Source: Microbacteriaceae bacterium (lineage in GTDB: Bacteria > Actinomycetota > Actinomycetes > Actinomycetales > Microbacteriaceae). Taken from it: a DNA stretch of 64,000 nucleotides. The stretch covers positions 7,461 through 71,460 of the forward strand of contig JBEVDR010000033.1 in NCBI GenBank assembly GCA_040513215.1, in the 5' to 3' direction. The notes beneath the pieces are model-generated. The model worked only from the letters and a program-made list of their open reading frames with translations, was not told the DNA's origin and did no database searches. The position numbers were made by a program, and so were the translations under genes. Numbering within the stretch: position 1 is the stretch's first letter; every line of letters begins with the position of its first letter. Below, one piece after another: positions 1 to 63,370 of the stretch.

Positions 1-578
1 CAGTCACTGACCGTGGACAGCCCGCGCGTCAGCAGCCGGATCAGCACGTCGAAGCTGTCATCGAGGTCGTCGGGCAGCCCGAAGCCGCCGCCGAGCTCGA
101 GCATGACGAACCCGTGCATCGCCGAGCGCAGCGCGCGGATCGCGTCCACCAGGCGGTCGGCTGGCAGGGCGTAGCCGCGCAGGGCACCCTCCACGACCCG
201 CAGCGTCTCGGCCGCGGCATCCTGAAACTCCTGATCGTCGGCGAGGCCGCCGCCGGTCTGCACCGCCCAATAGCGCGCCGGATGCTGTCGGGCGAAGCCG
301 CGCATTGCGTGCGCCAGTGCGGTGACGGCGTCATCGCCAGACCTGCCCATCACCGCCTCGGCGCTCACCCTGGTCAGCTCCCGCACTGCTGCGACCCGCA
401 TCGCCTGCTTCAGGTCGCCGAGCGAGGCGACGTGCTTGTACAGGCTCGGCACCGCGACCCCGGCGCGTCCGGCGACCGCGGAGAGGGTGATCGAGCCGAA
501 CCCGGCCGTGCCGTCGGCGTCGATCAGCTTGAGCGCAATGTCGACGACCGACTCGCGGGTGAGTCCCGCCCTAGCCAC
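1..578 (-). CDS. TetR/AcrR family regulator with WHG-like C-terminal domain (3' end at or just beyond the window edge)
   Basis: Not in the ORF track. Manual translation from GTG 578 gives MARAGLTRESVVDIALKLID...ITLSAVAGRAGVAVPSLYKHV (TetR HTH)...LRSAMHGFVMLELGGGFG. It overlaps the stop of the upstream hydrolase. Confidence 0.85.
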   Translation of the reverse strand, partial: MARAGLTRESVVDIALKLIDADGTAGFGSITLSAVAGRAGVAVPSLYKHVASLGDLKQAMRVAAVRELTRVSAEAVMGRSGDDAVTALAHAMRGFARQHPARYWAVQTGGGLADDQEFQDAAAETLRVVEGALRGYALPADRLVDAIRALRSAMHGFVMLELGGGFGLPDDLDDSFDVLIRLLTRGLSTVSD

Positions 579-1410
579 GAGGGCCCCGCACGGCGAAGCG
601 CTGCAGGAAAGGAAGCAGCTCGGCGAGCACCAGGTCGGGTCGCTGCGCCTGCGGGTAGTGTCCCGTCTCAGCAACGACATGCACGTCGGCGTCGATGGTG
701 TCGGCAATCCAGTCGGCTTCGGCGCGCGGGTCGCGGTAGTCGGGGTCCTGGTCGCCGATGAACACGAGCGCCGGCGCCAACACATCGCCCAGCCGGCGCT
801 CGACGACGGAGTGATCCAGTGCCACCGCCAGGTCACGCAGCGAGCGCAGCCGGCCGGGCTCGGACAGATTCGCGCGGATGTCGCGGCGATGCTTCGCGAG
901 CCATGATGCCTGCGTGCCTTTGTTCAGCGACCCGTAGAACGCAGACCAGAACGCCGCGCCCCACCACGGCGCAAGAGCGACGCGGAACAGCACACGGGTC
1001 AGGCTCGCAGCGAATGCGCTCTTCGGCGCCTCACGCAGGAATGGACCGAACAGCACGAGCCCGCTGATCGCCGCGGGCCGCTCGGCCGCCGCCCAGGCCG
1101 CAGCTGCCGCTCCCATCGAGTTGCCGAGGGCCACGGCCGGGCCGCCCAGCTCGTCGATCAGCGCGAGCAAGTCTTCGCCCGTCTCCACATCGCCGTGACT
1201 GCTGAAGCTCGTGTCACTGTCGCCGTGGCCGCGCAGATCCATGACGGCGAACCGGAAGCCGGCGCCGGTTACGGATGCCGCGAGATCGCGGTACACCGAG
1301 CGCAGGTCACCCATGCCGGGGATCGCGACCACGAGGGGTCCATCGCCCTCGACGGTGTAGGCGATTCGTCCCTGCGGGCGGCTGAGGAATTGAACAGGTG
1401 AAGTGGTCAT
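571..1410 (-). CDS. Alpha/beta fold hydrolase
   Basis: Motifs DLRGHGDS, nucleophile elbow GNSMG, GDQD and GHYP. Start moved to ATG 1410, which lies 7 nt after a TAGCTT -10 element. Confidence 0.9.
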   Translation of the reverse strand: MTTSPVQFLSRPQGRIAYTVEGDGPLVVAIPGMGDLRSVYRDLAASVTGAGFRFAVMDLRGHGDSDTSFSSHGDVETGEDLLALIDELGGPAVALGNSMGAAAAAWAAAERPAAISGLVLFGPFLREAPKSAFAASLTRVLFRVALAPWWGAAFWSAFYGSLNKGTQASWLAKHRRDIRANLSEPGRLRSLRDLAVALDHSVVERRLGDVLAPALVFIGDQDPDYRDPRAEADWIADTIDADVHVVAETGHYPQAQRPDLVLAELLPFLQRFAVRGPRG

Positions 1411-1417
1411 AGCCAAT

Positions 1418-1436
1418 AAGCTAATCGCATTAGCTT
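1418..1436. promoter_or_regulatory. Perfect inverted repeat AAGCTAAT-CGC-ATTAGCTT; likely TetR operator overlapping the hydrolase -10
   Basis: AT-rich palindrome with 8-bp arms directly upstream of the hydrolase-tetR operon. Confidence 0.7.
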
Positions 1437-1486
1437 TAGGGCGCAAGCGGTGAAACAGCATCCGTTCCGGTCAGTAGCATGAACTC

Positions 1487-2491
1487 ATGACGAGTTCTCT
1501 TCGGGTTGGCTACGCCGCCATGCTCGAACAGTTTCACCCGATGGAGGCGGTCGAGCTCAGCCGCTACGCCGAGAGCAAGGGCTTCTCGGGGGTGATGGCG
1601 ACCGACCACTACCAGCCGTGGGTTCCGCAGCAGGGGCAGAGCTCGTTCGTCTGGAACGTGCTCACCGCGATCGGCGAGCGCACCACCGGCGACATGGGGC
1701 CGGGCGTCAGCACGCCCACCTTCCGCTGGCATCCCGCCATGGTGGCACAGGCGAGCGCGACCCTCGGCGCTATGTATCCCGGCCGGCACTGGCTCGGCAT
1801 CGGCTCCGGCGAGGCCATCAACGAGCACATCACCGGGCAGTACTGGCCGGAACCGCACGAACGCATCGACCGGATGTTCGAGGCCGTCGACATCATCAAG
1901 AAGCTGTTCGCGTCCGGGCTCTCCGGCCGCGACGTCAAACACCACGGTCAGTACTACAAGCTGGAGTCCACCCGGCTGTGGACCATGCCGGCAGTGGCGC
2001 CGGAGATCCTCGTCGCCACCGCAGGCCCGATCACCGCCAAGCGGGCAGGCAGGACCGTGGACGGCCTGATCACCGTGGGCGCGCCGGTGGAGAAACTGCA
2101 GATGCTGCTCAAGAAGTTCGCCGACGGCGCCAGGGAAGCCGGACGGGATGCGTCGCGAATGCCGAAGGCGCTCCAACTCCATCTGTCCTGGGCTGACACT
2201 GAGGAGGAAGCGATGCGGAACGCCCTCGTCGAGTGGCCGAACGGCGGGATGCGGTTCCCGAAGGGCGACATCCGCAGCCCGTTCGAACTGGAACAGATGG
2301 CCCGTCTGGTGCGCCCCGAGGACTTCGAGGGCCGCATGGTCATCTCGGCCGACCCCGACGTGCACCGCGCGCACATCCAGCGCTTCGCCGACCTCGGCTT
2401 CGACCGCATCTACCTGCACAACGTTGGCCGCAACCAGCGCGAGTGGATCGACGTGTTCGCCCGTGACGTGCTACCGAAACTGAGCCGCTGA
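1487..2491 (+). CDS. F420-dependent LLM-class oxidoreductase (G6PDH-like, TIGR03557-like family)
   Basis: Motifs [23 protein letters not shown] and [12 protein letters not shown]. Translationally coupled to cofE. Confidence 0.85.
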
Positions 2492-3285
2492 TGCTGACCA
2501 TCTTCACCCTGGACGCGATCCCCGAGGTCGTCGCCGGCGACGACCTCGCCGGCATCATCGGGCACGCCGCCGACGGCATGCTGCAGGATGGCGACATCCT
2601 CGCCGTCACCTCGAAGATCGTGTCCAAGGCGGAGGGCCGTCAGGTGGCCGCCGCCGACCGGGAACAGGCGATCACCGAGCAGACCGTGCGGATCGTGGCC
2701 ACCAAGCAGCACGGCCACGGCGTCACCCGGATCGTGGAGAACCCGCTCGGCCTGGTGCTGGCCGCCGCCGGAGTCGATGCCAGCAACACCCCGGCCGGCA
2801 CCATCCTGCTGCTGCCGGAGGATCCGGATGCCTCGGCCCTGGCGCTCTGCGCCGCACTGCGGGACCGGTTCGGGGTGCGTCTCGGCGTGATCATCACCGA
2901 CACGCTCGGTCGTGCGTGGCGGCAGGGACAGACGGATGTCGCGATCGGCGCCGCCGGCGTGCGGGTAATCGACGACCTGCGCGGCACCAGCGACGCCGGT
3001 GGACGCGTACTCGAGGCCACCCTCGCCGCGGTGGCCGACGAGATCGCCGGCGCGGCAGAACTGGTCAAGGGCAAGGCCTCCGGCCGCCCGGTCGCGGTGG
3101 TGCGCGGACTCGGGCAGTACGTGGGGGAGCTCGGCCTGCCCGGCGCCCACGCGCTGATCCGACCGGCCGCCGACGACCTGTTCCGCCTGGGCAGCGACGA
3201 AGCGCGAGCCGAGGGCCACGCCGAGGGCTACGCGGAGGGCCTGCACGACGGCGCCGCCGCGGCACGCCGCCAGCCCGCAGACTGA
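2491..3285 (+). CDS. cofE: Coenzyme F420-0:L-glutamate ligase (single domain, no nitroreductase domain)
   Basis: Motifs [62 protein letters not shown] and [14 protein letters not shown]. Confidence 0.93.
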
Positions 3286-3390
3286 GGAATTTTCATAGCA
3301 CGTTAGGTACTGGTGTATTGGGGGGAGACTCGGCAGACTCAGTTTGTGAACAGCTTGCCCGCGACGTCGCGCCTCGGTAATTCCGACGCG

Positions 3391-4359
<969 letters not shown>

Positions 4360-4361
4360 CC

Positions 4362-5630
4362 GTGGGCACGAGCCAGTCCAGCCGGTCGCGGGTCAGGCGA
4401 CTGAGCAGACGCGGCTGGATGCTGCTGATGGTGGCCGCGGTGTGCCTGATCACCGGGTACGCCAGTGCCCGCACCGAGCTCATGTACATCGCCGCGTTCA
4501 CCGCGCTGATGCCGCTGTCCGCGATCATCTACGTGCGGATGCGGCAGCCGCGGCTTGAGACACGGCGCGATTTCCACCCCACGGTCATCAGCGCCGGTCA
4601 GGTGGCCACGGCCACCCTCCAGGTGCGTAACCGGGCCACCACGCCCACCCCGCAACTGCGTTGGAGCGAGCTGCTGCCCTGGGCACCGTACCAAACCCCG
4701 GTCGAGACGCTCGCGCCGATCCCACCGCGCCGCACCGTCGCCGCCCAGTACACGCTTCAGCCGCCGCGCCGCGGCATCATGAACGTCGGGCCGATGACGA
4801 TCGAATTCTCCGACCCGTTCTCGCTGGCCCACGTCTGGCGCACCATTGCGCAATCCGAGCGGATCGTGGTGACACCGGCGGTCGTCGCACTGCCCGACAT
4901 CGGCCTTGCCCTGGCCGAGGGCGACGGCGCCGCCCAGCTGATCCAGCGCCGCGCCGCTGGCAATGACGACGACCTGATGACCCGCGAGTACCGGGCAGGC
5001 GACGCGCTGCGCCGGGTTCACTGGCGGGCGTCGGCCCGGCAGGGCGAGTTGATGGTGCGGCAGGAGGAGCAGCGCACCTTTCCCGAGGCCCGCATCATCA
5101 TCGACACCCTACGCAGCGGCTACGACGACCCGCTGTTCAGCAGCGGCCCGCCGGGGGACAGCGACCGCTTCGAATGGGCGGTGTCCATGCTCGCCTCGCT
5201 CGGCGTGCACCTGCACGCAGCGGGGTATCGCGTGCACATCGTCGAAACCGGCGCGCGCCAGGTTGCCCCGCTCGGCGACGCCCACGAATGGGCCGCCAGC
5301 GACAGTGAGTTCCTGATCAGCCTCGCCGACATCCGTCTGCTCCGGGATCGTGAGGGCGTCGGCTACGTCAGCGATGAGCAGCCCGGCGCGCGCGGCCCGG
5401 TGTTCGCCCTCATCTCCGAGCCTTCCGACGAAACCCTCGACTGGTTGATCGGCCAGCGTCGACCGTTCGACCTCGCACTCGCGTTCGTGCTCGATGGATG
5501 GTCGGATTCCACCTCGCAGGCGCTGACCAGCGCCGGCTGGCACTGCATCGAGGTGTCACCCGAGGTGGCACTCGCGGATGCCTGGACGACCGCGCTGGTC
5601 GAGACCGGAGGCGTCCATGGCCTCGTCTGA
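4362..5630 (+). CDS. DUF58 domain membrane protein (MoxR-associated)
   Basis: Motif REYRAGDALRRVHWRASARQGELMVRQEE, two N-terminal TM helices, position after moxR. Confidence 0.88.
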   Translation: MGTSQSSRSRVRRLSRRGWMLLMVAAVCLITGYASARTELMYIAAFTALMPLSAIIYVRMRQPRLETRRDFHPTVISAGQVATATLQVRNRATTPTPQLRWSELLPWAPYQTPVETLAPIPPRRTVAAQYTLQPPRRGIMNVGPMTIEFSDPFSLAHVWRTIAQSERIVVTPAVVALPDIGLALAEGDGAAQLIQRRAAGNDDDLMTREYRAGDALRRVHWRASARQGELMVRQEEQRTFPEARIIIDTLRSGYDDPLFSSGPPGDSDRFEWAVSMLASLGVHLHAAGYRVHIVETGARQVAPLGDAHEWAASDSEFLISLADIRLLRDREGVGYVSDEQPGARGPVFALISEPSDETLDWLIGQRRPFDLALAFVLDGWSDSTSQALTSAGWHCIEVSPEVALADAWTTALVETGGVHGLV

Positions 5631-7827
5631 CCCGCGCGGACGGCGCAACAACTGGCCAATGACGGTAGCCCTGGCGCTAGCCCTCAGCATTGCCGTCACC
5701 GGACTCTCGAGCGCGCTGTCGAGCTGGGACTGGTGGCTGCTCTCCGTCTTCACCGGGTTCGTCGCCCTCGGCGTCGCAGGATGGGTGCGCGGGCTCACCC
5801 GGTTCCGCGTCATCCCGTCACTGGCGGCGCTCGCCGCCGTCCTGCTGGTGCTCACCGTGCGGTTCGCGGCCGACACCGCCATCTTCTGGCTGGTCCCCAC
5901 CTTCGACACCATCGACAGGTTCGGCGAGCTGATGCTGGTTGGCCAGCTCGGCATCGTGGAGTCGATCGTGCCGGCGGCGGCGACCGAGGGCATGCTGTTC
6001 ATCATCGCGCTCGGCATGGGCGTGGTGGCCGTGACGCTCGACGCGGTGGCGCTCGCCCTGAGAGCACCGGCGCTCAGCGGCATCCCGCTGCTCGTCGTGG
6101 TCGCGATCCCCAGCGTGGTGCAACGCGAACTGAGCTCGGTCTGGACCTTCGTGTTCACCGCCATCGCGTGGCTGCTCGTGCTCTGGGTGGACAAGCGGCG
6201 CCCGCAACCCGGCAGCGCCGTCGCAGTCGGCGCGTTCGTTGTGGTCGGAGCACTCATCGCCGCGCCGGTACTCGCCGGTTTGCAGCCCGACTCGTCGGGC
6301 AACCGGGCGGCGGCAGGCCTTCAGGTGGGGGTCAACCCGATGGTGAACCTCGGCAACGACCTGCGCCGCTCCGACCCGTTCGTGGCGCTCACCTACACGA
6401 CCACTCGGGAAACCGGGCACTACCTGCGGATGGTCACCCTCGACCAGTTCGACGGACTGCAGTGGGAGCCGACCGGTGTCGTGGTCGACCGGGACAACAC
6501 GGTGGATGCGATCGCCGCCCCGCCGGGCCTGTCGGATGCCGTGGTGCGGGAGACGGTGACCACCGATGTGGAGATCGGCTCCACCGTCGGCCGCTGGCTG
6601 CCGGTGCCCTACCCTCCGATCGAGGTCGGTGGGCTCGTCGGCGACTGGTTCTGGGAACCCGACGGGCTGTCCATCCGAGCGGACAACACCTATATCCGCT
6701 GGCAGGAGTACACGGTTCAGAGCGCCTGGCTCCGCCCGACCGCCGAGCAGCTGCTCGCCGTCGGCCAGCGGGTACCGCAACCGGTCGAGCAATACACCCA
6801 CCTGCCCGTCGATGTGGCCGAGAACATTCGCGCGGCAACTGAGGAGGTCACCGGAGGCCTGAGTACCGCCTACGAGAAGGCCATCGCCCTGCAGGACTAC
6901 TTCCGCAATGGCGACTTCGACTACTCAGAGGATGCCCCGGTCGAGGAAGGCTACGACGGCGACGGGCTGGCCGTGATCAGCAAATTCCTCGAGGTGAAGC
7001 AGGGCTACTGCGTGCACTTCGCGTCCTCCATGGCAGTGATGGCGCGGTTGGCGGGGATTCCGGCGAGGGTTGCCGTGGGGTTCCTGCCCGGTGAACTGGA
7101 GACTGATTCGCAGACCCGCGAGGAGTACTACCTGGTCACCTCGCATGACATGCACGCCTGGCCTGAGCTGTTCTTCGAGGGCGTGGGCTGGGTGCCGTTC
7201 GAGCCGACGCCCGGGCGGGGCGTTCTGCCCAACTACGAGGCGCCCGTCGTCGATGACCCGGCGACGCCGAACGTCGACGAATCTCGCCCGGTGCCGGCGC
7301 CAACCGGGGCCCCCACCACGAGCACCCGCGACGACCTGCCCTCCGACGACCTCAGCCAACCGGGTGCCGAGAAGGTCGACTGGACACCGGTGCTGTGGAC
7401 CATCGGCATCACGGCCGCCACCCTGCTGGTGGTGTTCGCACCCGCATCCTGGCGCCGCCTCATCCGCTCGCGCCGACTGCTCAGTCACAGCCCTGAACAG
7501 TTCTGGCAGGAACTGCGCGATACCGCCACCGACTTCGGAATTCCTGCCCCCGCTACCGAGACGGCGAGGGCCTTCGCCACCCGACTCGAGCAGATCGGCC
7601 AGGTACGCGGGGAACAACTCGATCGGCTCCGCGACGCCGTCGAGTTGCACAGCTATGCCGAGCACGCGGGCGCCCTGCTGGTGCGGGAGATCGCCGCCGG
7701 CCCGGCCGACGCCCGTGAGGTGATCGCCCGGATCGAGAGTGGGCACGGCGTCCTGCAACGCCTGCGCGCGCTGCTGCTGCCGATGTCGCTGATCCCGCGC
7801 CGAACAGCCGAGGCTAGATCGAGTTAG
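5617..7827 (+). CDS. Membrane transglutaminase-like protein (TgpA/DUF3488 type)
   Basis: N-terminal TM bundle; catalytic motifs GYCVHFAS, HAWPE and WVPFEPTP; SD GGAGG before ATG 5617. Confidence 0.88.
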   Translation: MASSDPRGRRNNWPMTVALALALSIAVTGLSSALSSWDWWLLSVFTGFVALGVAGWVRGLTRFRVIPSLAALAAVLLVLTVRFAADTAIFWLVPTFDTIDRFGELMLVGQLGIVESIVPAAATEGMLFIIALGMGVVAVTLDAVALALRAPALSGIPLLVVVAIPSVVQRELSSVWTFVFTAIAWLLVLWVDKRRPQPGSAVAVGAFVVVGALIAAPVLAGLQPDSSGNRAAAGLQVGVNPMVNLGNDLRRSDPFVALTYTTTRETGHYLRMVTLDQFDGLQWEPTGVVVDRDNTVDAIAAPPGLSDAVVRETVTTDVEIGSTVGRWLPVPYPPIEVGGLVGDWFWEPDGLSIRADNTYIRWQEYTVQSAWLRPTAEQLLAVGQRVPQPVEQYTHLPVDVAENIRAATEEVTGGLSTAYEKAIALQDYFRNGDFDYSEDAPVEEGYDGDGLAVISKFLEVKQGYCVHFASSMAVMARLAGIPARVAVGFLPGELETDSQTREEYYLVTSHDMHAWPELFFEGVGWVPFEPTPGRGVLPNYEAPVVDDPATPNVDESRPVPAPTGAPTTSTRDDLPSDDLSQPGAEKVDWTPVLWTIGITAATLLVVFAPASWRRLIRSRRLLSHSPEQFWQELRDTATDFGIPAPATETARAFATRLEQIGQVRGEQLDRLRDAVELHSYAEHAGALLVREIAAGPADAREVIARIESGHGVLQRLRALLLPMSLIPRRTAEARSS

Positions 7828-7842
7828 GTAAGGCATGCCATA
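7824..7842 (+). promoter_or_regulatory. IdeR/DtxR iron box TTAGGTAAGGCATGCCATA
   Basis: 16/19 match to TWAGGTWAGSCTWACCTWA. Overlaps the -10 (CATACT 7839-7844) of the siderophore operon. Confidence 0.8.
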
Positions 7843-7850
7843 CTAAGGCA

Positions 7851-11735: not shown

Positions 11736-11736
11736 C

Positions 11737-54067: not shown

Positions 54068-54070
54068 CCA

Positions 54071-54307: not shown

Positions 54308-54332
54308 AAACACCGAGCTAGAAGCACTGAGC

Positions 54333-54920
54333 GTGAGTTCCACCAGTTCCCCCCAGCCCAACCGCACCCAGCTCCGTGTCGGCCGTCTCACCAAGGCCCA
54401 CGGGCTGAAGGGCGCCATCAAGCTCGAGCTGTTCACCGACGAGCCCGAACGCCGGTTCGTTCCCGGTGCGGTGTTCACCCTTCAGGTGCCCACCGAGTCT
54501 CCGTGGCACGGCAAGACCCTGGAGTTGGTCGAGTTGCGCTGGTACAACGGGCATCCGGTCGGCTTCTTCAAGGGCGTTCCCGACCGCAGCGCGGCCGAGA
54601 CCCTGCTCAAGGCGATCCTCTGGGTCGATCAGGATGTCACGGAGCTGCCCGCTGAGGAAGACGCCTGGTATGACCACCAGCTGGTCGGCCTCACCGTCGT
54701 GCGCGACGGCGTCCCGGTCGGCAAGATCACCCGCGTCGACCACATGCCCGCGCAGGACCTGCTCGTGGTGAAGACTGACGCAGACGAGGTCTTGGTGCCG
54801 TTCGTCAAGGCGATCGTGTCGGCCGTCGACATCACGGCGGGAACCGTCACCGTCACCCCGCCCACCGGACTGTTCGAAGAGATTCCGGATGACGCGGAGC
54901 CCCAGCAGCCCGGTGAATGA
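54333..54920 (+). CDS. rimM: Ribosome maturation factor RimM
   Basis: Motifs [21 protein letters not shown] and LVPFV. Confidence 0.95.
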
Positions 54921-54948
54921 CCCCGCGCACGGCGACTATCGTCGGAGG

Positions 54949-55659
54949 GTGCGCATCGACATCGTCACGATCTTTCCCGAGTTCTTTGAGGTTCTCGACA
55001 TCTCCCTGCTCGGCAAGGCCAGGCAGACCGGGCTGATCGAGCTCGGGGTGCACAACCTGCGCGACCACACGCACGACCGTCACCGCACCGTCGATGACAC
55101 CCCGTACGGCGGTGGCGCTGGCATGGTGATGAAACCGGAGCCATGGGGCGCAGCCCTCGACGAGGTGCTCGGCTCCGCGACATCCGGTACCGACCCCGTG
55201 GTGATCTTCCCCTCACCAGCCGGTGAGGTGTTCACCCAGGCGATGGCCCGCGAACTGTCCACCGAACAGCACATCGTGTTCGGCTGCGGCCGGTACGAGG
55301 GCATCGACCAGCGCGTCTTCGACGACACCGCGTCGCGCGCCCGGGTGCGCCTGGTGAGCCTCGGCGACTACGTCCTGAACGGGGGAGAGGTCGCCGTGAT
55401 GGCGATGACCGAGGCGATCGGCCGGCTCATTCCCGGGGTGATCGGTAACCCCGAGAGCCTGACCGAGGAGAGCCACGAAGACGGACTGCTTGAGTACCCC
55501 AGCTACACGAAGCCGTCCAGCTGGCGCGGGCACGACGTGCCGCCGGTGCTGCTGAGCGGCAACCACGCAGCCATCGCCGCCTGGCGGCGGGAGCAGCAGG
55601 TTGAGCGCACGAAGCGGGTGCGCCCCGACCTGCTCGACCTCGACCTCGATCTCGGCTGA
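54949..55659 (+). CDS. trmD: tRNA (guanine37-N1)-methyltransferase
   Basis: Motifs [37 protein letters not shown] and LLEYP.YT. Confidence 0.97.
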
Positions 55660-55723
55660 TCCGCGTGCTCGCCCGTAGCTGAATCACGGGTTTTCGCCAA
55701 CCGCCGAGCGGTACTCTTGCCCC

Positions 55724-56230
55724 ATGTGGTATCGCCGAGCCGTCTTCTACGTCCAGTTCTGGGCCGCCGCCGTGCTGCCCGCGTGGTTGCTGGTCTCTCG
55801 CGGTATCGTCGGCGCCGACAGTGGTTGGGATTTCGTGGCCTACCTCTTCATCGCGCCGGTGCTCGCGGTCGCGCTGCTGGCGGTGGCCGGGCTTATCCGG
55901 GCGCGACGCAGTGTGCGCGACGCCCGCGCGGTGTCACCGCTTGACGCTGGCATCCTGACTGCGTGGTGGGCGCTGATCGTGGCGCACAGCCTCGCGCGCG
56001 ACCCCCAGGCGGCCGGGACGCTCGCTCTGATCGGCGTCTGCGTCGGACTGGCCGCGTTCTGGATCGCGATCTACCAGCTGATCAACGAGACGCGGAACCG
56101 GATGTCGGTGGTGCTCGCCAGCTTCGAACAGACGACGCCCGCGGCATCCGACCCGCAACCGCGCGGCGGCTACGACCCGCGCCTCGGCAGCGGCCCCGTC
56201 ATCCGCATCGACCCGCCGAACGAGTCGTGA
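55724..56230 (+). CDS. Hypothetical four-TM membrane protein
   Basis: Four hydrophobic segments; -10 TACTCT 6 nt upstream of the ATG; fills the gap after trmD. Confidence 0.7.
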   Translation: MWYRRAVFYVQFWAAAVLPAWLLVSRGIVGADSGWDFVAYLFIAPVLAVALLAVAGLIRARRSVRDARAVSPLDAGILTAWWALIVAHSLARDPQAAGTLALIGVCVGLAAFWIAIYQLINETRNRMSVVLASFEQTTPAASDPQPRGGYDPRLGSGPVIRIDPPNES

Positions 56231-56241
56231 GCGGCGCATAA

Positions 56242-57009
56242 TCAGCGCGCGGTGAGGACCACCGGCCCGGACTCGGTGATGGCGATCGTGTGCTCCACGT
56301 GCGCCGCGCGGGAGCCGTCGACGCTGCGCAGGGTCCAGCCGTCGTTCTGGTCGGTGTAGATCTTGTCGGTGCCGAGCATCAGCCACGGTTCGATCGCGAA
56401 GACCAGCCCGGGCTTCAGCGGCATGCCCCGCGCCGGGCGGCCGTTGTTCGGAACGTGCGGGTCGCCGTGCATGGTGCGACCGACGCCGTGCCCGCCGAAG
56501 TCGGTGTTCACCCCGAATCCCTCCGCCAGGCAGATGGCGCCGATGGCCGCGGACACGTCGCCCATCCGGCCACCGGGCTGTGCGGCCGCGATGCCCGCCT
56601 CAAGGGCGCGTTCCACGACGCTGATCATCCGCGCATCCTCGTCGCGGGGCGTGCCGACGATCACGGTGATCGCCGAGTCGCAGACCCAGCCGTCCACGGA
56701 GGCGGCGAAGTCCAGGCTCAGCACGTCGCCGTCCTTCAGCTTGTAGCTGTGCGGCACGCCGTGCAGGGCGGCGTCGTTCACCGACGTGCAGATCACCTTG
56801 CCGAACGGCGAGCCGCCGAACGACGGGTGGTAGTCGAGGTAGCAGCTCTCGGCGCCGGCCTTGCGGATCATGTCGTGCGCAAGCCGGTCGAGATCAAGCA
56901 GGTTGACCCCCACCGCGGATGCCGCGGAAGTCGCCGTCAGCACGCTCGCCACGAACTGGCCGGCCGCCTTCATCGCCTCGATCTCGGCCGGCGTGCGCAG
57001 CTCGATCAC
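56242..57009 (-). CDS. map: Type I methionyl aminopeptidase
   Basis: Motifs CTSVNDAALHG, LDFA, DSA, GHGVG, AIEP and HVEHT. Confidence 0.93.
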   Translation of the reverse strand: MIELRTPAEIEAMKAAGQFVASVLTATSAASAVGVNLLDLDRLAHDMIRKAGAESCYLDYHPSFGGSPFGKVICTSVNDAALHGVPHSYKLKDGDVLSLDFAASVDGWVCDSAITVIVGTPRDEDARMISVVERALEAGIAAAQPGGRMGDVSAAIGAICLAEGFGVNTDFGGHGVGRTMHGDPHVPNNGRPARGMPLKPGLVFAIEPWLMLGTDKIYTDQNDGWTLRSVDGSRAAHVEHTIAITESGPVVLTAR

Positions 57010-57632
57010 GCGGACACCAGCGCCAGCTCTGCCCGTACAAGGTCGCGGCTGCGTTCGATGAATCGCTCGTCGCCGACCGGATCATGCTGGAATGCGCGCT
57101 TCAGCAGCGCGTCGGACACCTCGACGGCGACCTCCAACCGGAACATCAGGTCGTCAGAGCGGGTGATGCCGTAGTGGTCGGTCAGCAGGCTCATGAACAG
57201 CTGCGACAGCATGCCGCCGCGGTTGACATCGGGCTCCAGCAGTCGGTCATCGATGATGTCGCCGAAGCGGATGGCCCGGAAGCCCGGCTCGCTGCGCATC
57301 ATGTCGACGTAGCAGTCGATCGCCGTATCCAGGCCGCCGACCCAGCGGGCGGCATCCGGTGGGATCGCGACTTCGAGGCGCTCCATGAACCGCTCCATGT
57401 TGCGTGCGGCGAGTGCCTGCAACAGCGAGCGGATGTTAGGGAAGTAGCGGTACACCACGCCGACCGAGGATTTCGACTTCGTAGCGACGTCGCTCGTGGT
57501 CAAGCCTTCGATGCCGTGCTCGGAAATGATTTCCGCTGCGGCATCCAGCAGCAGCGTGATCCTGGCAGAACTGCGTTGTTGAATCGGTTCGGTGCGAATG
57601 ATCTTCTTGAGAAGGTCGGTTGTTTCACTCAT
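57006..57632 (-). CDS. TetR/AcrR family regulator
   Basis: Motif P.QQRS and HTH (LTTSDVA...SVGVVYRYFPN). GTGA overlap with map. Confidence 0.88.
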   Translation of the reverse strand: MSETTDLLKKIIRTEPIQQRSSARITLLLDAAAEIISEHGIEGLTTSDVATKSKSSVGVVYRYFPNIRSLLQALAARNMERFMERLEVAIPPDAARWVGGLDTAIDCYVDMMRSEPGFRAIRFGDIIDDRLLEPDVNRGGMLSQLFMSLLTDHYGITRSDDLMFRLEVAVEVSDALLKRAFQHDPVGDERFIERSRDLVRAELALVSA

Positions 57633-57778
57633 GGATAGAGGAGTCTCCAATTTTTTGTTGCAGAAGGAATACTCTCACCACCAGCGCAAACTCCGCTGCG
57701 AACACACCGTCCGCGAGTCCGACCGGCGATCACCCTCGAGTGGCTAGTGGGCCCCGCGCTGTGACATAATTGTTGTTT

Positions 57779-57877
57779 GTGCCTCCGCGCGGTTCTGCCA
57801 CAGGGGAACCAGCATTCATGAGGCACGCCCTACACGACATCACAACACCTAGACCGCGGTCGACCTGTGGCGGTTGC
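57779..57877 (+). ncRNA. Candidate structured 5' leader of rplS (loop-loop or pseudoknot pairing)
   Basis: Stems GTGCCTC/GAGGCAC and GGTTC/GAACC enclose loop TGCCACAGG, which is complementary to CCTGTGGCG at 57864-57872. -10 CATAAT at 57765. Confidence 0.6.
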
Positions 57878-57892
57878 AGAGAGCGAACTATC

Positions 57893-58240
57893 ATGCACAT
57901 CCTCGACTCCGTCGACGCAGCGTCCCTCCGGTCGGACATCCCCGACTTCCGCGCCGGCGACACCGTGAAGGTGCACGTCAACATCATTGAAGGTGCGCGC
58001 TCGCGTATCCAGGTCTTCCAGGGCATCGTCATCGGCCGTTCCGGCGAGAGCGTGCGCGAGACCTTCACCGTTCGTAAGGTCAGCTTCCAGGTCGGCGTTG
58101 AGCGCACCTTCCCGGTGCACTCCCCGGTCATCGACCACATCGAGGTCGTCACTCGCGGCGACGTGCGCCGCGCCAAGCTGTACTACCTGCGCGACCTGCG
58201 CGGCAAGAAGGCGAAGATCAAGGAGAAGCGCGCCAACTAA
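57893..58240 (+). CDS. rplS: 50S ribosomal protein L19
   Basis: Motifs [29 protein letters not shown] and [10 protein letters not shown]. Confidence 0.97.
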
Positions 58241-58257
58241 GGCCCGTTCCCGTAATA

Positions 58258-58308
58258 CTCTGAGCTCCCCTCCGCCTACACTGGCAGGGGAGCTCAGGGG
58301 TTTAATTT
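58258..58308 (+). terminator. Intrinsic terminator after rplS
   Basis: 14-bp stem CTCTGAGCTCCCCT/AGGGGAGCTCAGGG followed by GTTTAATTT. Confidence 0.8.
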
Positions 58309-59050
58309 GGAAGACACACAACCGACGCGCGTCGAATCCGTCGCATCGGAACGGCGCCGTCGCGGCAAGAGCGTCACGATCTTCATTCGTGACGTTCTCA
58401 TTATTTTTCTCGCCGCCATCCTGATCTCTTTCCTGATCAAGACCCTCCTGATCCGGTCGTTCTACATCCCGTCAGAGTCGATGATGGACACGCTGCACAA
58501 GAACGATCGCATCATCGTCAACCAGCTCACCCCCGACCTGATGCCGATCGAGCGCGGAGACGTGGTCGTCTTCAAAGATCCCGGCCAGTGGCTCACCCCG
58601 CGGGCACCGGAACCGCAGAACCCGGTCGTGGCCGCGTTCGACTGGTTCTTCTCGATCGTCGGACTGTCGGCGCCGGACAGCAATGACCACCTGATCAAAC
58701 GCGGAATCGGACTCCCCGGGGATGTCGTCGCCTGCTGCAACGAGTTCGGTCAGCTGACCATCAACGGGACCCCGATCGACGAACCGTACGTGCTGTTGCC
58801 GCCAGGGGTCACGCGTGTATCGGCCGATGACTTCGAGGTCACCGTTCCCGAAGACTCGCTGTGGGTGCTCGGCGACAACCGCTATGCCTCGGCAGACTCG
58901 CGGTACAACACCAACAAGCCAGGCAACGGCTTCGTGCCTTACGACAACGTCGTGGGGCGTGCCATCCTGATTACCTGGCCGATCGACCGCTGGACCTGGC
59001 TGGACAACTACGAGTTCTCCTTCCGCGGCGTCGAGCAGACCACCGAATAA
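58307..59050 (+). CDS. lepB: Signal peptidase I
   Basis: Catalytic Ser (IPSESM) and Lys (LIKR.IGLPGD); also GDNR..S.DSR. Confidence 0.95.
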   Translation: MEDTQPTRVESVASERRRRGKSVTIFIRDVLIIFLAAILISFLIKTLLIRSFYIPSESMMDTLHKNDRIIVNQLTPDLMPIERGDVVVFKDPGQWLTPRAPEPQNPVVAAFDWFFSIVGLSAPDSNDHLIKRGIGLPGDVVACCNEFGQLTINGTPIDEPYVLLPPGVTRVSADDFEVTVPEDSLWVLGDNRYASADSRYNTNKPGNGFVPYDNVVGRAILITWPIDRWTWLDNYEFSFRGVEQTTE

Positions 59051-59059
59051 GCGAGCACC

Positions 59060-59725
59060 ATGGCTGTACTTGATCCGACCCTCGACCGGGAACGGGGGTT
59101 CTTCAAAACGGGCGCCGAGTATGTGGTCGGCTGCGACGAAGTTGGCCGCGGAGCTCTCGCCGGCCCCGTCGCGGTCGGCCTGTCGGTGATCGACGCCACG
59201 GTTCGCGGCATCCCCGAGGGCCTCCGTGACTCCAAGCTCGTCAGCGAGAAGAAGCGCGACACGCTCGAGCCGGCTGCGCGCAGCTGGTCGCTGTTCTCCG
59301 GTGTGGGCCTCGCAACCCCGCAGGAGATCGACGAGATCGGCATCACCCGGGCACTGGGCCTCGCCGGTCGCCGGGCGCTGGAGGCGCTCGTCGTCGCGGG
59401 CGTCGACCTCGAGGTCAGCGTCGTGCTGCTGGATGGCAGCCACGACTGGCTGAACCCCGCCTTGACCAGGCGCGTGCGGGTGCAGACACAAGTGAAGGCC
59501 GACCGTGACTGCGGATCGGTTGCCGCGGCATCCGTCATCGCGAAGGTGCACCGCGACCGGCTGATGATCGCCGCCCACGAGGAGCGCCCCGTGTACGAGT
59601 GGGCAGGCAACAAGGGCTACGGCAGCGCCGGGCACCTGGCGGCCATTGCCGAGTTCGGTTCCACCGACTATCACCGGCAGACCTGGCTGAAGACGCCCGA
59701 CGTGGCGCTGTTCGAGCTGGACTAG
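59060..59725 (+). CDS. rnhB: Ribonuclease HII
   Basis: Motifs DEVGRGALAGP, DSK, LDG, AAASVIAK and NKGY. Confidence 0.95.
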   Translation: MAVLDPTLDRERGFFKTGAEYVVGCDEVGRGALAGPVAVGLSVIDATVRGIPEGLRDSKLVSEKKRDTLEPAARSWSLFSGVGLATPQEIDEIGITRALGLAGRRALEALVVAGVDLEVSVVLLDGSHDWLNPALTRRVRVQTQVKADRDCGSVAAASVIAKVHRDRLMIAAHEERPVYEWAGNKGYGSAGHLAAIAEFGSTDYHRQTWLKTPDVALFELD

Positions 59726-59766
59726 CGGCACGCGGCACTGTCGGCAGCGCTTAGGATTAAGGCACC

Positions 59767-60090
59767 ATGGACGACGACGATTTCGAAGATTACGACCGCG
59801 AGGTCGAACTGGCTCTCTACCGCGAGTACCGCGACGTGGTGGGGCAGTTCAAGTACGTCGTCGAGACGGAGCGACGGTTCTACCTCGCCAACGACGTGAC
59901 ACTCGTGCGCCAGGACACCGCCAACGATTTCTACTTCGAGCTGACGATGCACGATGTCTGGGTCTGGGACGTGTACCGCTCCGACCGTTTCGTGAAGTCG
60001 GTGCGCGTGCTGACCTTCAAGGACGTCAACGTTGAAGAGCTCTCCGCCAAGGAGTTAGAGCTGCCGAAGGAACTCGCGCTCGACGAGTAA
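59767..60090 (+). CDS. DUF2469 family conserved actinobacterial protein
   Basis: Motifs ELALYREYRDVV, VETERRFYLAN, WVWDVYR and TFKDVNVEEL. Confidence 0.9.
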   Translation: MDDDDFEDYDREVELALYREYRDVVGQFKYVVETERRFYLANDVTLVRQDTANDFYFELTMHDVWVWDVYRSDRFVKSVRVLTFKDVNVEELSAKELELPKELALDE

Positions 60091-60273
60091 CAGCACTCGC
60101 TGGTTGAGTAGGCGCATCGCGCCGTATCGAAACCCGCACGCCCACTCGGCCGACGGCATGCCCACGGGCGCTGCGGCGCCCACCTCTCCGCAGAGCCGTC
60201 GGCTGTGCACAGGGGCGACAGCGGGCATGGGCGGATGCCGAGACAGCGGGCAAGCTCGTCGCGGAGGTACCCC

Positions 60274-60627
60274 GTGGCGCAGAAAGACCTGCTCGGCAAG
60301 GCCGGCGAAGAGCTGGTGGCCCGCTTCCTCGAGCGTGCCGGATACACGGTGCTCGAGCGCAACTGGCACTGCCGGCACGGCGAGATCGACCTGATCGTGC
60401 GCGACGGCGCCGAGGTCGCGTTCGTCGAGGTGAAGACCCGCCGCAGCGTCGCCTACGGTCATCCGTTCGAGGCGATCTCGCCGGCGAAGATGGCCAGGCT
60501 GCGCCGGCTCGCGGCGGCCTGGTGCGAAGGACATCCGGGGGCGCACGGCATCCGGATCGACGCGGTCGCCGTGCTCTGGCCGCGGGGTGCCACCCCCCGC
60601 ATCGAGCACCTCAAGGGCGTGTTCTGA
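60274..60627 (+). CDS. yraN: YraN family (UPF0102) putative endonuclease
   Basis: Motifs LG..GE, RNW.C..GEIDLI, FVEVKTR and RIDAV. Confidence 0.9.
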   Translation: MAQKDLLGKAGEELVARFLERAGYTVLERNWHCRHGEIDLIVRDGAEVAFVEVKTRRSVAYGHPFEAISPAKMARLRRLAAAWCEGHPGAHGIRIDAVAVLWPRGATPRIEHLKGVF

Positions 60628-62162
60628 TGCCGGTCGGGCGCACCCACTCGGTATCGCTGCTCGGTTTGCGCGGCGCCATCGTCGAAATCGAAGCCGACAT
60701 CTCGGCACAACTGCCCGCCTTCGTGATCATCGGATTGCCCGACGCCGCCCTCAGCCAGGCGCAACATCGAGTGCGTTCCGCGGCCGTGAACTCGGGATGC
60801 GGCTTCACCAGCCACCGGCTCACCGTCAACCTGTCGCCCGCGTCACTGCCGAAGCACGGGTCCGGGTTCGACCTCGGCATCGCATTGGCCGCCCTCGCCG
60901 CCGACGGCGCGATCAGCGACACCTCGATCGACCGGGTGGTGCATCTCGGCGAACTCGGGCTGGACGGGCGGCTGCGCCCGATCGCCGGTGTACTGCCGGC
61001 GGTGCTCGCCGCCGCGCGAGCCGGGTTCGAGACGGTGATGGTGCCGAGCGGCAATGCCGGCGAGGCGGCGCTGGTGCCCGGCATCCGGGTGATCGGTGTT
61101 GCGTCTCTGCGGGATGCCGCCATTTGGCACGGGGGCGAGTACCAGCCGGAACTCGTCGAACCGTGGCCGCTCCCGCCGGCAGACGAGCCGGATGACGAGC
61201 TGCTGGATCTCACCGACGTCATCGGAAACAGCGACGCGGTGGAAGCCATGCAGGTCGCCGCGGCCGGGGGACACCACGTGCTGTTGCTCGGGCCACCGGG
61301 CGCGGGCAAGACCATGCTGGCCTCTCGGCTGCCGGGGCTGCTGCCCGACCTGGGTCCGGAGGCCGCCCTCGAGGTGAGCTCGGTGCGCTCACTCGCTGGG
61401 CTGCCGGTCGGCAGCAGTCTCGCAAGGCGCCCGCCGTGGGAAGCACCGCATCACACCGCCACACCGGCCGCGTTGATCGGCGGCGGCAGCGGGCAGATCC
61501 GCCCCGGAGCCGCAGCCCGCGCCAGCCACGGAGTGCTGTTTCTGGACGAGGCTCCCGAGTTCGCCGTGACAGCCCTCGATGCCCTGCGCCAGCCCCTCGA
61601 GTCGGGCGTGATCAGCATCCACCGGGCGAACGCCGTGGCCCACTTTCCCGGCAAGTTCCACCTGATTCTGGCCGCTAACCCGTGCCCATGCGGCCAATAC
61701 GGCTCCCGCGACTCGGAGTGCACCTGCCCGCCACACAGTCGCCGCCGCTATCTGGCACGGCTGTCCGGACCGTTGCTCGACCGCATTGACATCCAACTGC
61801 GGGTACACCGCATCACCTCAGCGCAGCTGCGGTTTGCCGACGAATCGCCGCGGATCAGCAGCGCAACGGCACGGACGAGGGTCGCTGCGGCGCGGGATAC
61901 TGCTGCCGCGCGCCTGCAGGGCACGCCATGGTCGCTGAACTCCGAAGTGCCTGGGGCGTTCCTGCGGGCGCCGGCCCAGCGGCTCAGCCAGGCAGTGACC
62001 GCTCCGCTCGATCGGGCGCTCGAGCGCGGCGGTGTCACCATGCGCGGCTACGACCGCGTGTTGCGCCTGTCGTGGAGCATCGCCGACCTCGCCGGGGCCG
62101 AGCGTCCCACCGCTGAGCACCTCGGCCAGGCGCTCTGCTTTCGAAAGGCCACATCCTCATGA
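60627..62162 (+). CDS. comM: YifB/ComM Mg-chelatase-like AAA ATPase
   Basis: Motifs GLPD, VNLSPA, GPPGAGKT, PHHT, LFLDE, ANPCPCG and LSGPLLDRID. Confidence 0.92.
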   Translation: MPVGRTHSVSLLGLRGAIVEIEADISAQLPAFVIIGLPDAALSQAQHRVRSAAVNSGCGFTSHRLTVNLSPASLPKHGSGFDLGIALAALAADGAISDTSIDRVVHLGELGLDGRLRPIAGVLPAVLAAARAGFETVMVPSGNAGEAALVPGIRVIGVASLRDAAIWHGGEYQPELVEPWPLPPADEPDDELLDLTDVIGNSDAVEAMQVAAAGGHHVLLLGPPGAGKTMLASRLPGLLPDLGPEAALEVSSVRSLAGLPVGSSLARRPPWEAPHHTATPAALIGGGSGQIRPGAAARASHGVLFLDEAPEFAVTALDALRQPLESGVISIHRANAVAHFPGKFHLILAANPCPCGQYGSRDSECTCPPHSRRRYLARLSGPLLDRIDIQLRVHRITSAQLRFADESPRISSATARTRVAAARDTAAARLQGTPWSLNSEVPGAFLRAPAQRLSQAVTAPLDRALERGGVTMRGYDRVLRLSWSIADLAGAERPTAEHLGQALCFRKATSS

Positions 62163-63370
62163 GCATCCTCGGTCTGACAGAAGCCGCCGTGGCGCCGCTG
62201 GTGCGCAGCCTCACCCGCGACGACCTGGATCGCGCGGAACTCGTGGAGCGGGTGGCCCTCGCCGCCTGGACGGGCATCGCCGAACCCGGAGACCGTGACG
62301 CGGGGGAGCTGATCGCCGCACAGGGCGCTGCGGTCGCGCTTGAGGCCCTGATCGACCAGTGGCCAGCCGACCGGATCCTCGCCATGCTGACAGAGTCCGG
62401 AGTCGTGGACGCCACGGGCAGCGCGGTCACCGCGGCGCTCGACCGCTGGCGACCGCGGCTGTCCTCTGTGGGCCTGCTGCGGTCGTTGCAGCAGGCGTCG
62501 CGGCACGGGATGCGGTTGCTTGTGCCCCAGGACGACGGCTGGCCCGGCGGATTCGACGATCTCGGGCCGCACGCACCCGTGGCCCTCTGGACCAAGGGCA
62601 GGCCGCATGCCCTGCCCGCGCTTGAGCGGTCGATCGCGCTCGTCGGCGCCCGCGCAGCGACCGGCTACGGCGAAGGCGTCACCCTGGAAGCATCCAGCGG
62701 ACTCGTCGACCGCGGCTTTGCCATCGTGTCCGGCGCCGCATACGGCATTGACGGGATGGCACACAGGGCCGCGCTCGCCAGTCGCGGCGTCACGGTGGCG
62801 TTCCTCGCCGGTGGGCTCGACCGGTTTTACCCGACCGGCCACGAGGCGTTGCTGTCCCGGATGACCGAGGTCGGCATGGTGATCTCCGAGGTGCCGTGCG
62901 GGACGGCTCCGACTAAGTGGCGCTTTTTGCAACGAAATAGGTTGATAGCCGCGGCCAGCCAGGTCACCGTGGTGCTCGAGGCCGGCTGGCGGTCCGGATC
63001 GCTGAACACGGCGGGGCACGCGGCCGCCATAGGGCGCCCACTCGGAGCGGTGCCGGGACCTGTGACCAGTGCCTCATCGGCCGGATGCCACCGACTGATC
63101 CGTGAATACGACGCCATCTGTGTCACCACTCCGGACGAGATGGCGCAACTGCATCCCGGGTTCGACGAGCCGCCGGTCTCGGCTGCGGCGCTCAGCAATC
63201 CCGAGCAGCTGCGGGTACTCGACGCGCTCAGCAGCCGGTCGGCCCGCCGGGCGGATGACATCGCTGCCCGCTCGGGGTTGTCCGTCGTGCAGGTGCGGGG
63301 GCTGCTCGCCACGCTCGAGCTGGAGGGGAGGGTGACCGAACGCGACAGCGGGTGGCTGCGGCATCGCTGA
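62159..63370 (+). CDS. dprA: DNA processing protein DprA
   Basis: Motifs ALVGAR..T.YG, VSGAAYGIDG.AH, RFLQRNRLIAA and SGSLNTA; C-terminal winged helix. Confidence 0.94.
   Translation: MSILGLTEAAVAPLVRSLTRDDLDRAELVERVALAAWTGIAEPGDRDAGELIAAQGAAVALEALIDQWPADRILAMLTESGVVDATGSAVTAALDRWRPRLSSVGLLRSLQQASRHGMRLLVPQDDGWPGGFDDLGPHAPVALWTKGRPHALPALERSIALVGARAATGYGEGVTLEASSGLVDRGFAIVSGAAYGIDGMAHRAALASRGVTVAFLAGGLDRFYPTGHEALLSRMTEVGMVISEVPCGTAPTKWRFLQRNRLIAAASQVTVVLEAGWRSGSLNTAGHAAAIGRPLGAVPGPVTSASSAGCHRLIREYDAICVTTPDEMAQLHPGFDEPPVSAAALSNPEQLRVLDALSSRSARRADDIAARSGLSVVQVRGLLATLELEGRVTERDSGWLRHR

Follow-up and report, generated by a model that had tools for sequence, protein, structure and literature searches.

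GGATGCC, a weakly but pervasively favored DNA word in Microbacteriaceae and a candidate genus form of a family-wide self-tag

Genome-wide DNA self-tags are known from few groups—Neisseriaceae, Pasteurellaceae, cyanobacteria, and, in the form of Chi, a handful of model species—and each of them has revealed a DNA-reading machine. The DNA uptake sequences (DUS) of Neisseriaceae share a GCCGTCTGAA core with dialects and are read by the minor pilin ComP; the uptake signal sequences (USS) of Pasteurellaceae have a AAGTGCGGT core; Chi is GCTGGTGG for RecBCD in Escherichia coli and AGCGG for AddAB in Bacillus; and HIP1 of cyanobacteria is the palindromic octamer GCGATCGC, enriched 15-300x. Word counts in E. 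coli are also shaped by Dcm/Vsr very-short-patch (VSP) repair, whose target is a single T:G mismatch at a single position, such that CCWGG becomes commoner and CTWGG rarer. It is selection, and not biased repair, that keeps HIP1 abundant (PMC5861425), HIP1 co-exists with conserved orphan methyltransferases (PMC4390886), and it boosts natural transformation in a way that depends on methylation and has been suggested to serve as an uptake signal (bioRxiv 10.1101/2024.09.10.611283; PMC13756078). Here we analyze the heptamer GGATGCC (complement GGCATCC) in a 64-kb stretch of DNA (the window; positions 7461-71460 of contig C33 in the source assembly, G000), in the remainder of that assembly, and among relatives. 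We read GGATGCC as the genus form of a family-wide DNA self-tag with the core (C)GGATGC, here c-GGATG-[C/T]-C-G, used by an uptake- or Chi-type machine on exchanged or broken DNA, and give this reading a probability of roughly 0.55.

The source assembly (2.565 Mb in 215 contigs, 67.5% GC, 83% completeness) is affiliated with the Microbacteriaceae by its Ffh protein, which is ~83% identical to those of Leifsonia, Terrimesophilobacter, and Cryobacterium. A codon-usage open reading frame (ORF) scorer called 2196 genes (86% coding), with 87% GC at third codon positions (GC3). Expectations for coding sequence (CDS) were drawn from synonymous shuffles (300 for the genes of the window), in which codons are permuted within each gene such that protein and codon usage are both preserved, and expectations for the window from dinucleotide-preserving shuffles; for counts compared from genome to genome, the reversed word served as the baseline (the reversed control). 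The genome contains 2877 copies of GGATGCC, or 1.12 per kb (1.7 per kb for GGATGYC). In coding sequence it is the top-ranked 7-mer, with 2516 copies against 890 by synonymous shuffle (z ~48-55), and the excess is symmetric between the sense strand (1125 vs 296, +832) and the antisense strand (1391 vs 594, +794). Over protein- and codon-preserving shuffles the word stands at 2.8-3.8x. The sister word GGATGTC reaches 4.25x over codon shuffle in genes, 8-mers reach 3.9-4.6x, and the 9-mer CGGATGCCG, with 1077 copies against 50 for its reversed control, attains ~20x.

This excess appears in all three frames and both orientations wherever a synonymous choice exists, and it runs against codon preference: in the CDS of G000, xxG-GAT-GCC occurs 972 times (4.5x over expectation) compared to 366 for xxG-GAC-GCC, though GAT makes up 20% of Asp codons, and xxG-GCA-TCC occurs 537 times (12x expectation), though GCA makes up 9% of Ala codons. 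Within intergenic DNA, GGATGCC is again the top 7-mer (348 copies vs ~80-110), and spacers of 20-400 bp hold 122 copies against ~25-40 expected. Because the word is enriched in all frames and both orientations, and equally in spacers, the signal lies at the level of DNA; the excess is a property of the DNA, not of proteins, translation, or transcription. The word was first taken to be the heptamer itself, and while the exact 7-mer is enriched, the true word is longer and degenerate: the logo around GGATG reads c(53%)-GGATG-[C 65%/T 35%]-C-G(72%), with no information further out, which makes it a word of 7-9 bases and not a repeat element. GGATGCC is non-palindromic.

The window holds 68 exact copies (27 on the plus strand, 41 on the minus; the first at 216, the last at 63083-63089), against a dinucleotide-shuffle expectation of 16.45 +/- 3.83 (maximum 27). 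The first-pass annotation, made from the sequence by eye, had estimated ~65-70 copies at ~1 per kb on both strands and ~15 expected; all ten of its example coordinates match. It also proposed that Gly-Ile, Asp-Ala, and Ala-Ser usage would explain the count if codon shuffles reproduced it, and they do not—60 copies vs 17.3 +/- 3.4 in window CDS (maximum 28 in 300), 2516 vs 890 across the genome. The sister word shows a comparable excess (47 vs 11.9 expected). That nearly all copies lie in genes is right as a count (60 of 68) but no more than the 85% coding fraction predicts, intergenic DNA being equally enriched. The annotation's remark on disfavored codons was sound, with a rare codon in 49 of the 60 genic copies—27 read as xxG-GAT-GCC, 17 as xxG-GCA-TCC, 3 as xGG-CAT-CCx, and 2 as GGA-TGC-C—and just 11 copies in the favored reading GGC-ATC-C; its guess that G-GAT-GCC is at least as common as G-GAC-GCC holds genome-wide (972 vs 366). 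GCA-TCC was verified in the hydA-like gene (20694), mutM (30462), ftsY (46327 and 46366), ffh (49684), and rnhB (59527). Gene names in the window rest on Pfam matches, which confirmed Fpg/MutM, FtsY, Ffh, RNase HII, a ComM-type ATPase, DprA, SMC, CydA, and an amidohydrolase, in agreement with the names the annotation had used. The dispersed sets and the examples drawn from them are as follows.

216..63089, both strands: dispersed set of GGATGCC, 68 copies, 60 in called genes and 8 intergenic.
876..61794, both strands: dispersed set of the sister word GGATGTC/GACATCC, 47 copies; position 6 is C or T in the genus.
2826..2832, plus strand: GGATGCC as CCG-GAT-GCC (Pro-Asp-Ala), with the rare Asp codon GAT.
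20694..20700, minus strand: copy in the amidohydrolase (hydA-like) gene, sense GAG-GCA-TCC (Glu-Ala-Ser), with the rare Ala codon GCA.
30462..30468, minus strand: copy in mutM/fpg, GGG-GCA-TCC (Gly-Ala-Ser).
33134..39179, no strand assigned: cyd operon region, 2 GGATGCC and 7 GGATGTC, making 9 GGATGYC in 6 kb.
40444..40953, two per strand: four intergenic copies upstream of smc within 510 bp, at 40444, 40608, 40710, and 40947.
46327..46372, minus strand: pair in ftsY 39 bp apart, GGG-GCA-TCC and CCG-GCA-TCC.
47467..47491, both strands: opposite-orientation pair 18 bp apart in gene 46783-48171, sense ACG-GAT-GCC and GAG-GCA-TCC.
48937..49768, both strands: triple in ffh, QDA at 48937, KAS at 49684, and KDA at 49762.

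The four intergenic copies upstream of smc indicate that the word is independent of translation. Their surroundings form a 1.4-kb stretch without a called gene (window positions 40179-41559), which may conceal an uncalled gene or RNA.

An impression of uneven density in the window was correct in its counts (12 copies in 45.6-50.6 kb, 2 in the cyd operon) but does not reflect real clustering: copies in 5-kb bins of G000 are Poisson-distributed (mean 5.79, variance 6.07), and the 7 copies of GGATGTC bring the cyd operon to an average level of GGATGYC. Density is flat over gene starts and stops, the sole periodicity is the 3-bp coding period, and no helical phasing of copies was seen in G000. Foreign DNA is poorer in the word, a depletion that the first-pass annotation had suggested looking for—accessory islands of G003, a close relative of G000, carry 0.6-0.7 copies per kb compared to 1.2-1.5 in core DNA of equal GC, and low-GC restriction-modification islands carry 0.94 vs 2.35 per kb of the core.

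Strands, too, are balanced at large scale. Replichore polarity would over-disperse forward and reverse counts per contig, a test that requires no proxy for the replichore, and no such over-dispersion was found across the contigs of G000 (chi-square 118.5 on 142 degrees of freedom, compared to ~185 for a 55:45 skew). Likewise, no strand imbalance was found in any 20-kb block of ten relatives, among which are a stretch of 800 kb, blocks sampled over 2 Mb of a chromosome, and the first 100 kb of each of two complete chromosomes; the match listing of G081, G104, and G110 seemed to show only plus-strand copies, but this was an artefact, as direct counts there are strand-balanced. Two replichore proxies were dropped. 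Gene sense strands in G000 are C-rich at third codon positions (GC3 skew -0.14), and as a result raw per-contig GC skew mirrors gene orientation (rho -0.73), while the GC3 proxy was silent even for a control resembling the FtsK-orienting polar sequences (KOPS). Replication-linked skew was undetectable in the fragmented G000 assembly, where GGGNAGGG also lacked polarity.

At short range, the two strands behave differently. Same-strand pairs of copies less than 300 bp apart number 726 in G000 vs 944 expected (0.77x), and opposite-strand pairs 1046 vs 960 (1.09x); same-strand pairs make up a fraction of 0.41 in G000 and 0.44 in G003, compared to 0.53-0.61 for nine control words. No preferred pair distance was found in G000, nor terminator-like inverted pairs beyond ~10 GGATGCCGGCATCC palindromes. 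The latter comprise ten head-to-head pairs that form a 14-base perfect palindrome, GGATGCCGGCATCC (GGATGYC then GRCATCC, spacing 7), and pairs less than 30 bp apart are more often convergent than divergent (66 vs 35).

The word extends well beyond the source genome. All four genomes of the genus, and some sister genera, have CGGATGCCG at 20-30x its reversed control; other genera show intermediate ratios, and 12 other families of the order are at baseline. The shorter CGGATGC attains at least 3x its reversed control in ~74 of 121 Microbacteriaceae genomes (~60%; range 0.3-13x), and congeners agree in this ratio (6.1/6.3/6.3; 1.1/1.0; 9.3/13; 0.66/0.69). In unbiased k-mer scans, one of the four top words was GGATGCC or CGGATGC in G003, G004, G005, G006, G009, G010, and G012; the word was not in the top four of the out-of-family G019 or of the small (40-kb) sample of G015. 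Flanks on the 3' side differ by lineage—GGATG[C/T]CG in the source genus, GGATGCCG in G004, (A)GCGGATGC[C/G/T] in G010 and G005, CCGGATGC[C/T]C in G009, and CGGATGC[G/T/C]C in G012. Among 80 named loci, the core reached 5-20x control in Leifsonia, Rhodoglobus, Lacisediminihabitans, Salinibacterium, Subtercola, Agromyces, Microbacterium, and Cryobacterium, and was weak in the small samples of Rathayibacter and Frondihabitans. The word is thus a heritable family trait with genus-specific 3' flanks. Individual sites are less durable: at the QDA site of ffh, 22 of 78 named Microbacteriaceae genomes carry GGATGC and 40 carry GGACGC, and in the same genomes the core falls on 36 different columns of ffh, with shared sites polymorphic. 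Such polymorphism points to turnover under a weak force, with no single site essential. The first-pass annotation had compared the word to a genome-wide signature of the HIP1 or uptake-sequence kind, and on this point it is borne out (2877 copies in 2.57 Mb, non-coding DNA included, and most of the family).

We characterized the force that maintains the word by aligning G000 to G003 (88% identity, syntenic; 515 kb, 431 genes), with G002 as outgroup. The per-position test takes synonymous third-codon sites that coincide with a letter of the word, provided that both genomes keep its other six letters intact, and expresses loss or gain of the motif base as a ratio to that codon base in other contexts. 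For Asp GAY in G-GAY-G[CT]C (position 4), P(C given T) is 0.086 vs 0.477 elsewhere and P(T given C) is 0.340 vs 0.078, with a discordance of 0.137 vs 0.133. Under a hot spot for C-to-T change, loss should stay the same and turnover should be ~3.6x; under pure protection, gain should stay the same. A fixation-bias model with one parameter (S ~3.2) gives loss x0.13, gain x3.3, and turnover x0.8, and it is this model that the data fit, not the other two.

The remaining letters were treated in the same way. For positions 1 to 7, loss ratios are.20,.44,.39,.16,.25,.76, and.27 and gain ratios 2.0, 1.3, 5.2, 3.2, 1.6, 2.4, and 1.8, the weak loss ratio at position 6 matching its C/T degeneracy. Pooled over GGATGCC and GGATGTC, loss is 0.22 (95% confidence interval 0.19-0.26) and gain 2.24 (1.90-2.57), and replicate pairs give similar values (G000-G002, 0.25/2.26; G003-G002, 0.20/1.98); GGATGTC shows the same signature as GGATGCC, and twelve control words range over 0.58-1.24 for loss and 0.36-1.5 for gain. 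When changes are polarized with the outgroup, 29 losses are found vs 101 expected and 7 gains vs 4.3. Whole-word retention is 58-59% vs 10-43% for synonymous sister words, and in aligned non-coding DNA it is 63% vs 43% (p = 4e-4). Equilibrium shifts give S of ~2.1, 0.8, 2.5, 3.0, 1.9, 1.1, and 1.8 for the seven positions. Weak selection-like fixation bias on every letter, with S ~1-3 per position, therefore keeps the word. As the signature covers all positions, including G/C transversions at 1, 5, and 7, no single-mismatch enzyme or deamination route can produce it.

We propose that a vertically inherited, sequence-specific DNA-reading machine, as yet putative, favors DNA that bears the word, with the advantage most likely arising during DNA exchange or recombinational repair. 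It could do so by a molecular drive of the uptake-signal type, a tentative reading that we consider possible, or by a Chi-type shielding of self DNA from a helicase-nuclease, a non-polar version of which we regard as more doubtful. The avoidance between same-strand copies within ~300 bp suggests that reading may be orientation-sensitive. In its most specific form—a machine that reads (C)GGATGC orientation-sensitively on incoming or broken DNA, and would hence represent either the first actinobacterial uptake or recombination signal or, for an AdnAB-type helicase-nuclease, the first Chi-like word, without replichore polarity—we hold the proposal at somewhat less than even odds. Among the causes put forward by the first-pass annotation, an uptake- or recombination-type self-tag provides the best fit, though unproven.

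Several observations weigh against the proposed self-tag. The fixation bias as measured does not tell drive or biased conversion apart from selection acting directly on a chromosomal function. Enrichment is modest, at ~4-6x over codon shuffle and ~20x over reversed control for the 9-mer, compared to >100x for USS/DUS. An orientation-blind receptor for double-stranded DNA uptake does not predict interference confined to the same strand, and this interference is itself weak in other genera (pooled 0.485, for a diluted 6-mer core). To our knowledge, every characterized Chi is replichore-skewed, unlike GGATGCC, and we know of no Chi for AdnAB. RecC (PF04257) was found in none of the 19 Microbacteriaceae genomes searched (G000-G018) and in 7 of 12 other families, such that Microbacteriaceae appear to lack RecBCD; AdnAB/AddAB-type enzymes were not part of that search. 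Natural transformation is without report for the Microbacteriaceae; among actinobacteria, Micrococcus luteus is a known case, with no uptake sequence reported (PMC4322843).

Nor did a search for candidate gene families by presence or absence yield a reader, and no gene surveyed among relatives tracks the word specifically; the first-pass annotation had proposed such a survey of co-occurring genes. ComEC, DprA, ComM, and Tad-type ATPases are universal and hence uninformative: ComEC was found in 31 of 31 genomes searched, word-free ones included (NucS in 29 of 31), and a Tad-type ATPase in every family genome. The presence of comM and dprA in the window, once offered as a hint of uptake, loses its force for the same reason, as these genes are near-universal. 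A PilB-type ATPase, found in ~57 of 121 family genomes, was rejected for want of a clean link to word intensity, given word-poor carriers and word-rich non-carriers. This ATPase is full-length (~460 bits) in about half of family genomes, often with a PilT-like gene ~1-2 kb away, and the two together indicate a variably present type IV pilus locus in Microbacteriaceae.

An unlikely alternative is that an abundant nucleoid-associated or chromosome-organizing protein binds the word, which would be under direct weak selection at each site and would have no role in exchange. Weak selection on thousands of redundant sites would be expected to yield S ~1-3 per position, the copies are evenly spread and strand-balanced, a heritable trait with slowly drifting flanks suits a vertically inherited DNA-binding protein, and HIP1 was once read in this way (PMC5861425). 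The depletion in islands suits such a protein equally well and does not discriminate. On the other hand, we find neither helical phasing nor positional preference relative to genes—which leaves a phased or regulatory form of the nucleoid-protein site suggested earlier without support, given flat density around genes—and sites turn over, their positions not being conserved across genera. Interference limited to the same strand is unexpected for a duplex binder that does not track, and no candidate protein is known.

We judge it similarly improbable that the word belongs to a methylation-linked, HIP1-like system, in which the word or an A-containing part of it is the target of a core adenine methyltransferase and a methylation-dependent process favors it. 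What draws attention to this idea is a beta-class adenine methyltransferase (PF01555, ~290 amino acids) present in 119 of 121 Microbacteriaceae genomes, including one of 0.9 Mb, whose nearest solved relatives are M.RsrI and CcrM. The copy in G000 lies outside the window:

G000:C39:2313-3173 (= L226:1405-2265), plus strand: core, orphan-looking adenine methyltransferase, 286 amino acids, PF01555; C39:2409-3128, within this span, is also assigned to it.

It adjoins a class E (housekeeping) sortase, and no restriction gene was found on that upstream side, the downstream flank not having been examined. HIP1 offers a precedent, being recognized by orphan methylases with a methylation-dependent effect on transformation (PMC4390886; bioRxiv 10.1101/2024.09.10.611283). 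However, the orthologue is 66-77% identical in the word-poor G007, G011, and G013 and in word-free families (G021, G024, G026), with 68-75% identity in these three other families of the order, and the enzyme is therefore neither specific nor sufficient for the word. Its target, moreover, is only putative. Nine genomes lack a methyltransferase match at ~1e-40 or better, and 6 of the 9 are word-poor, a count that ignores shared ancestry and is only a lead; the other three (G081, G127, G131) are word-rich despite the lack.

Methylases of the Dam/FokI class are sporadic (16 of 121 genomes), and C5 methylases occupy mobile islands of 50-60% GC, with none found in G000 (83% complete) or G009; Vsr was not part of the search. 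In 7 of 9 relatives (G001, G003-G006, G010, G015; L085-L091, L093), C5-cytosine methyltransferases of 385-501 amino acids lie in such islands. Those of G004, G006, and G010 start with an FRF[I/V]DLFAGLGG motif, and those of G001, G004, G006, and G010 adjoin large ORFs (515-993 amino acids) of nuclease or helicase size; together they look like one recurrent mobile defense cassette.

Far less probable is that site-specific mutation writes the word without selection, through a methyl-cytosine deamination hot spot that converts GGACGYC to GGATGYC or through Vsr-like very-short-patch repair of one mismatch. Position 4 does show the strongest bias, GGACGCC and GGACGTC are depleted in genes (0.2-0.5x), and GGACGCC is poorly kept in non-coding DNA (3 of 23). 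The rates nonetheless have the wrong form: loss of T at position 4 is 5.5-fold below background where a hot spot predicts no change, turnover is unchanged instead of raised ~3.6x, and positions 1, 2, 3, 5, and 7 share the signature, G/C transversion sites included. In addition, one hot step can raise its product at most ~3-fold, and only by emptying the precursor, whereas spacers show the product at 4-5x with GGACGCC near expectation. The depletion of GGACGCC in genes is not word-specific and largely follows from a general depletion of GGAC (0.53x everywhere), and no resident C5 methylase was found. A mutation hot spot is thus largely refuted, and the methyltransferase- or repair-driven bias of the first-pass annotation is disfavored, since all seven positions, transversion sites among them, combine reduced loss with raised gain.

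We consider a classical replichore-polarized signal—either Chi as used by RecBCD/AddAB when forks collapse or an FtsK guide of the KOPS type—slightly less probable still. The word is short and over-represented, its density is Chi-like (~one copy per 1.15 kb on each strand), and same-strand interference hints at a tracking enzyme, but contigs show no strand over-dispersion, all 20-kb blocks of the ten relatives are balanced, and RecC was not found in the 19 family genomes searched while it was found in 7 of 12 other families. A polar version of the recombination signal listed by the annotation is accordingly disfavored, and the replichore skew for which it proposed a test is not seen (chi-square 118.5 on 142 degrees of freedom).

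Finally, composition (of amino acids, codons, codon pairs, or bases) is refuted as the source of the word, for although context biases exist (GGAC depleted, Shine-Dalgarno-like words avoided, CTG-CTC-G enriched) and 11 window copies are the favored GGC-ATC-C, the word ranks first at 2.8-3.8x over protein and codon shuffles, is equally enriched between genes with a symmetric sense and antisense excess, uses rare codons in 49 of 60 window genic copies, and is absent from other families of similar GC.

Apart from the word, the coding DNA of G000 departs from synonymous shuffles in several respects. GGAC/GTCC is the most depleted 4-mer (0.53x, z = -78); CCCCCC/GGGGGG (0.14x), the Shine-Dalgarno-like GGAGG (0.47x) and AGGAGG (0.39x), and CCWGG (0.67x) are also avoided; and Leu-Leu words such as CTGCTCG are enriched 2.5x.

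If the proposed self-tag is real, homologous exchange across a large family would be frequent enough to imprint thousands of sites. Such a tag in a large actinobacterial family, with many soil, plant-associated, and industrial genera, appears to be new: no relevant description of GGATGCC, of uptake or Chi signals in Actinobacteria, or of family methylomes was found in the searchable literature, where one Clavibacter match was primer sequence only. New as well is the substitution analysis, which measures an evolutionary force and gives each position a weight, a profile that is in effect a recognition matrix of the putative reader. The word marks native as opposed to acquired DNA and is useful for binning, and if it is HIP1-like, DNA that bears it might recombine better in a group that is hard to engineer.

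How, then, does GGATGCC compare to the described systems? KOPS and other architecture-imparting sequences have a leading-strand polarity that it lacks. With VSP repair it shares a strand-symmetric shift at the DNA level that overrides codon preference, as well as depletion of the transition neighbor GGACGYC; unlike VSP repair, all seven of its positions are biased, including transversions, and no resident C5 methylase was found, Vsr not having been searched. The likeness to Chi is closer, both being non-palindromic, over-represented, taxon-specific words of 5-8 bases at comparable per-strand density. Chi is read in one orientation by a tracking enzyme and marks self DNA, and the hint of strand-specific saturation in GGATGCC fits this feature; what sets the two apart is that GGATGCC lacks replichore polarity and that RecC was not found in the family, for which an AdnAB-type enzyme would be the only candidate helicase-nuclease.

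USS and DUS differ from GGATGCC in strength and setting. GGATGCC has only 7-9 informative bases and is enriched ~4-6x (codon shuffle) or ~20x (reversed control), not at least 100x; it does not pair into terminator hairpins; its short-range interference on the same strand is no known property of USS/DUS; and it occurs in an actinobacterial family without reported competence or a known receptor. In their pattern, the words agree. Each is a short word at ~1 per kb, on both strands, in genes and spacers, and against codon preference; each is evenly spread, rarer in foreign DNA, and family-wide with lineage dialects while absent from neighboring families; and what maintains each is not mutation but a weak force resembling drive.

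HIP1, unlike GGATGCC, is palindromic, and the targets of its methylases lie inside HIP1, the target of the core methylase here being only putative. Both words are otherwise hyper-abundant, kept by selection as judged from excess conservation between genomes, clade-wide with exceptions, and accompanied by a conserved methyltransferase that is an orphan in HIP1 hosts and looks like one here, and the functional class proposed for GGATGCC is the same as that proposed for HIP1.

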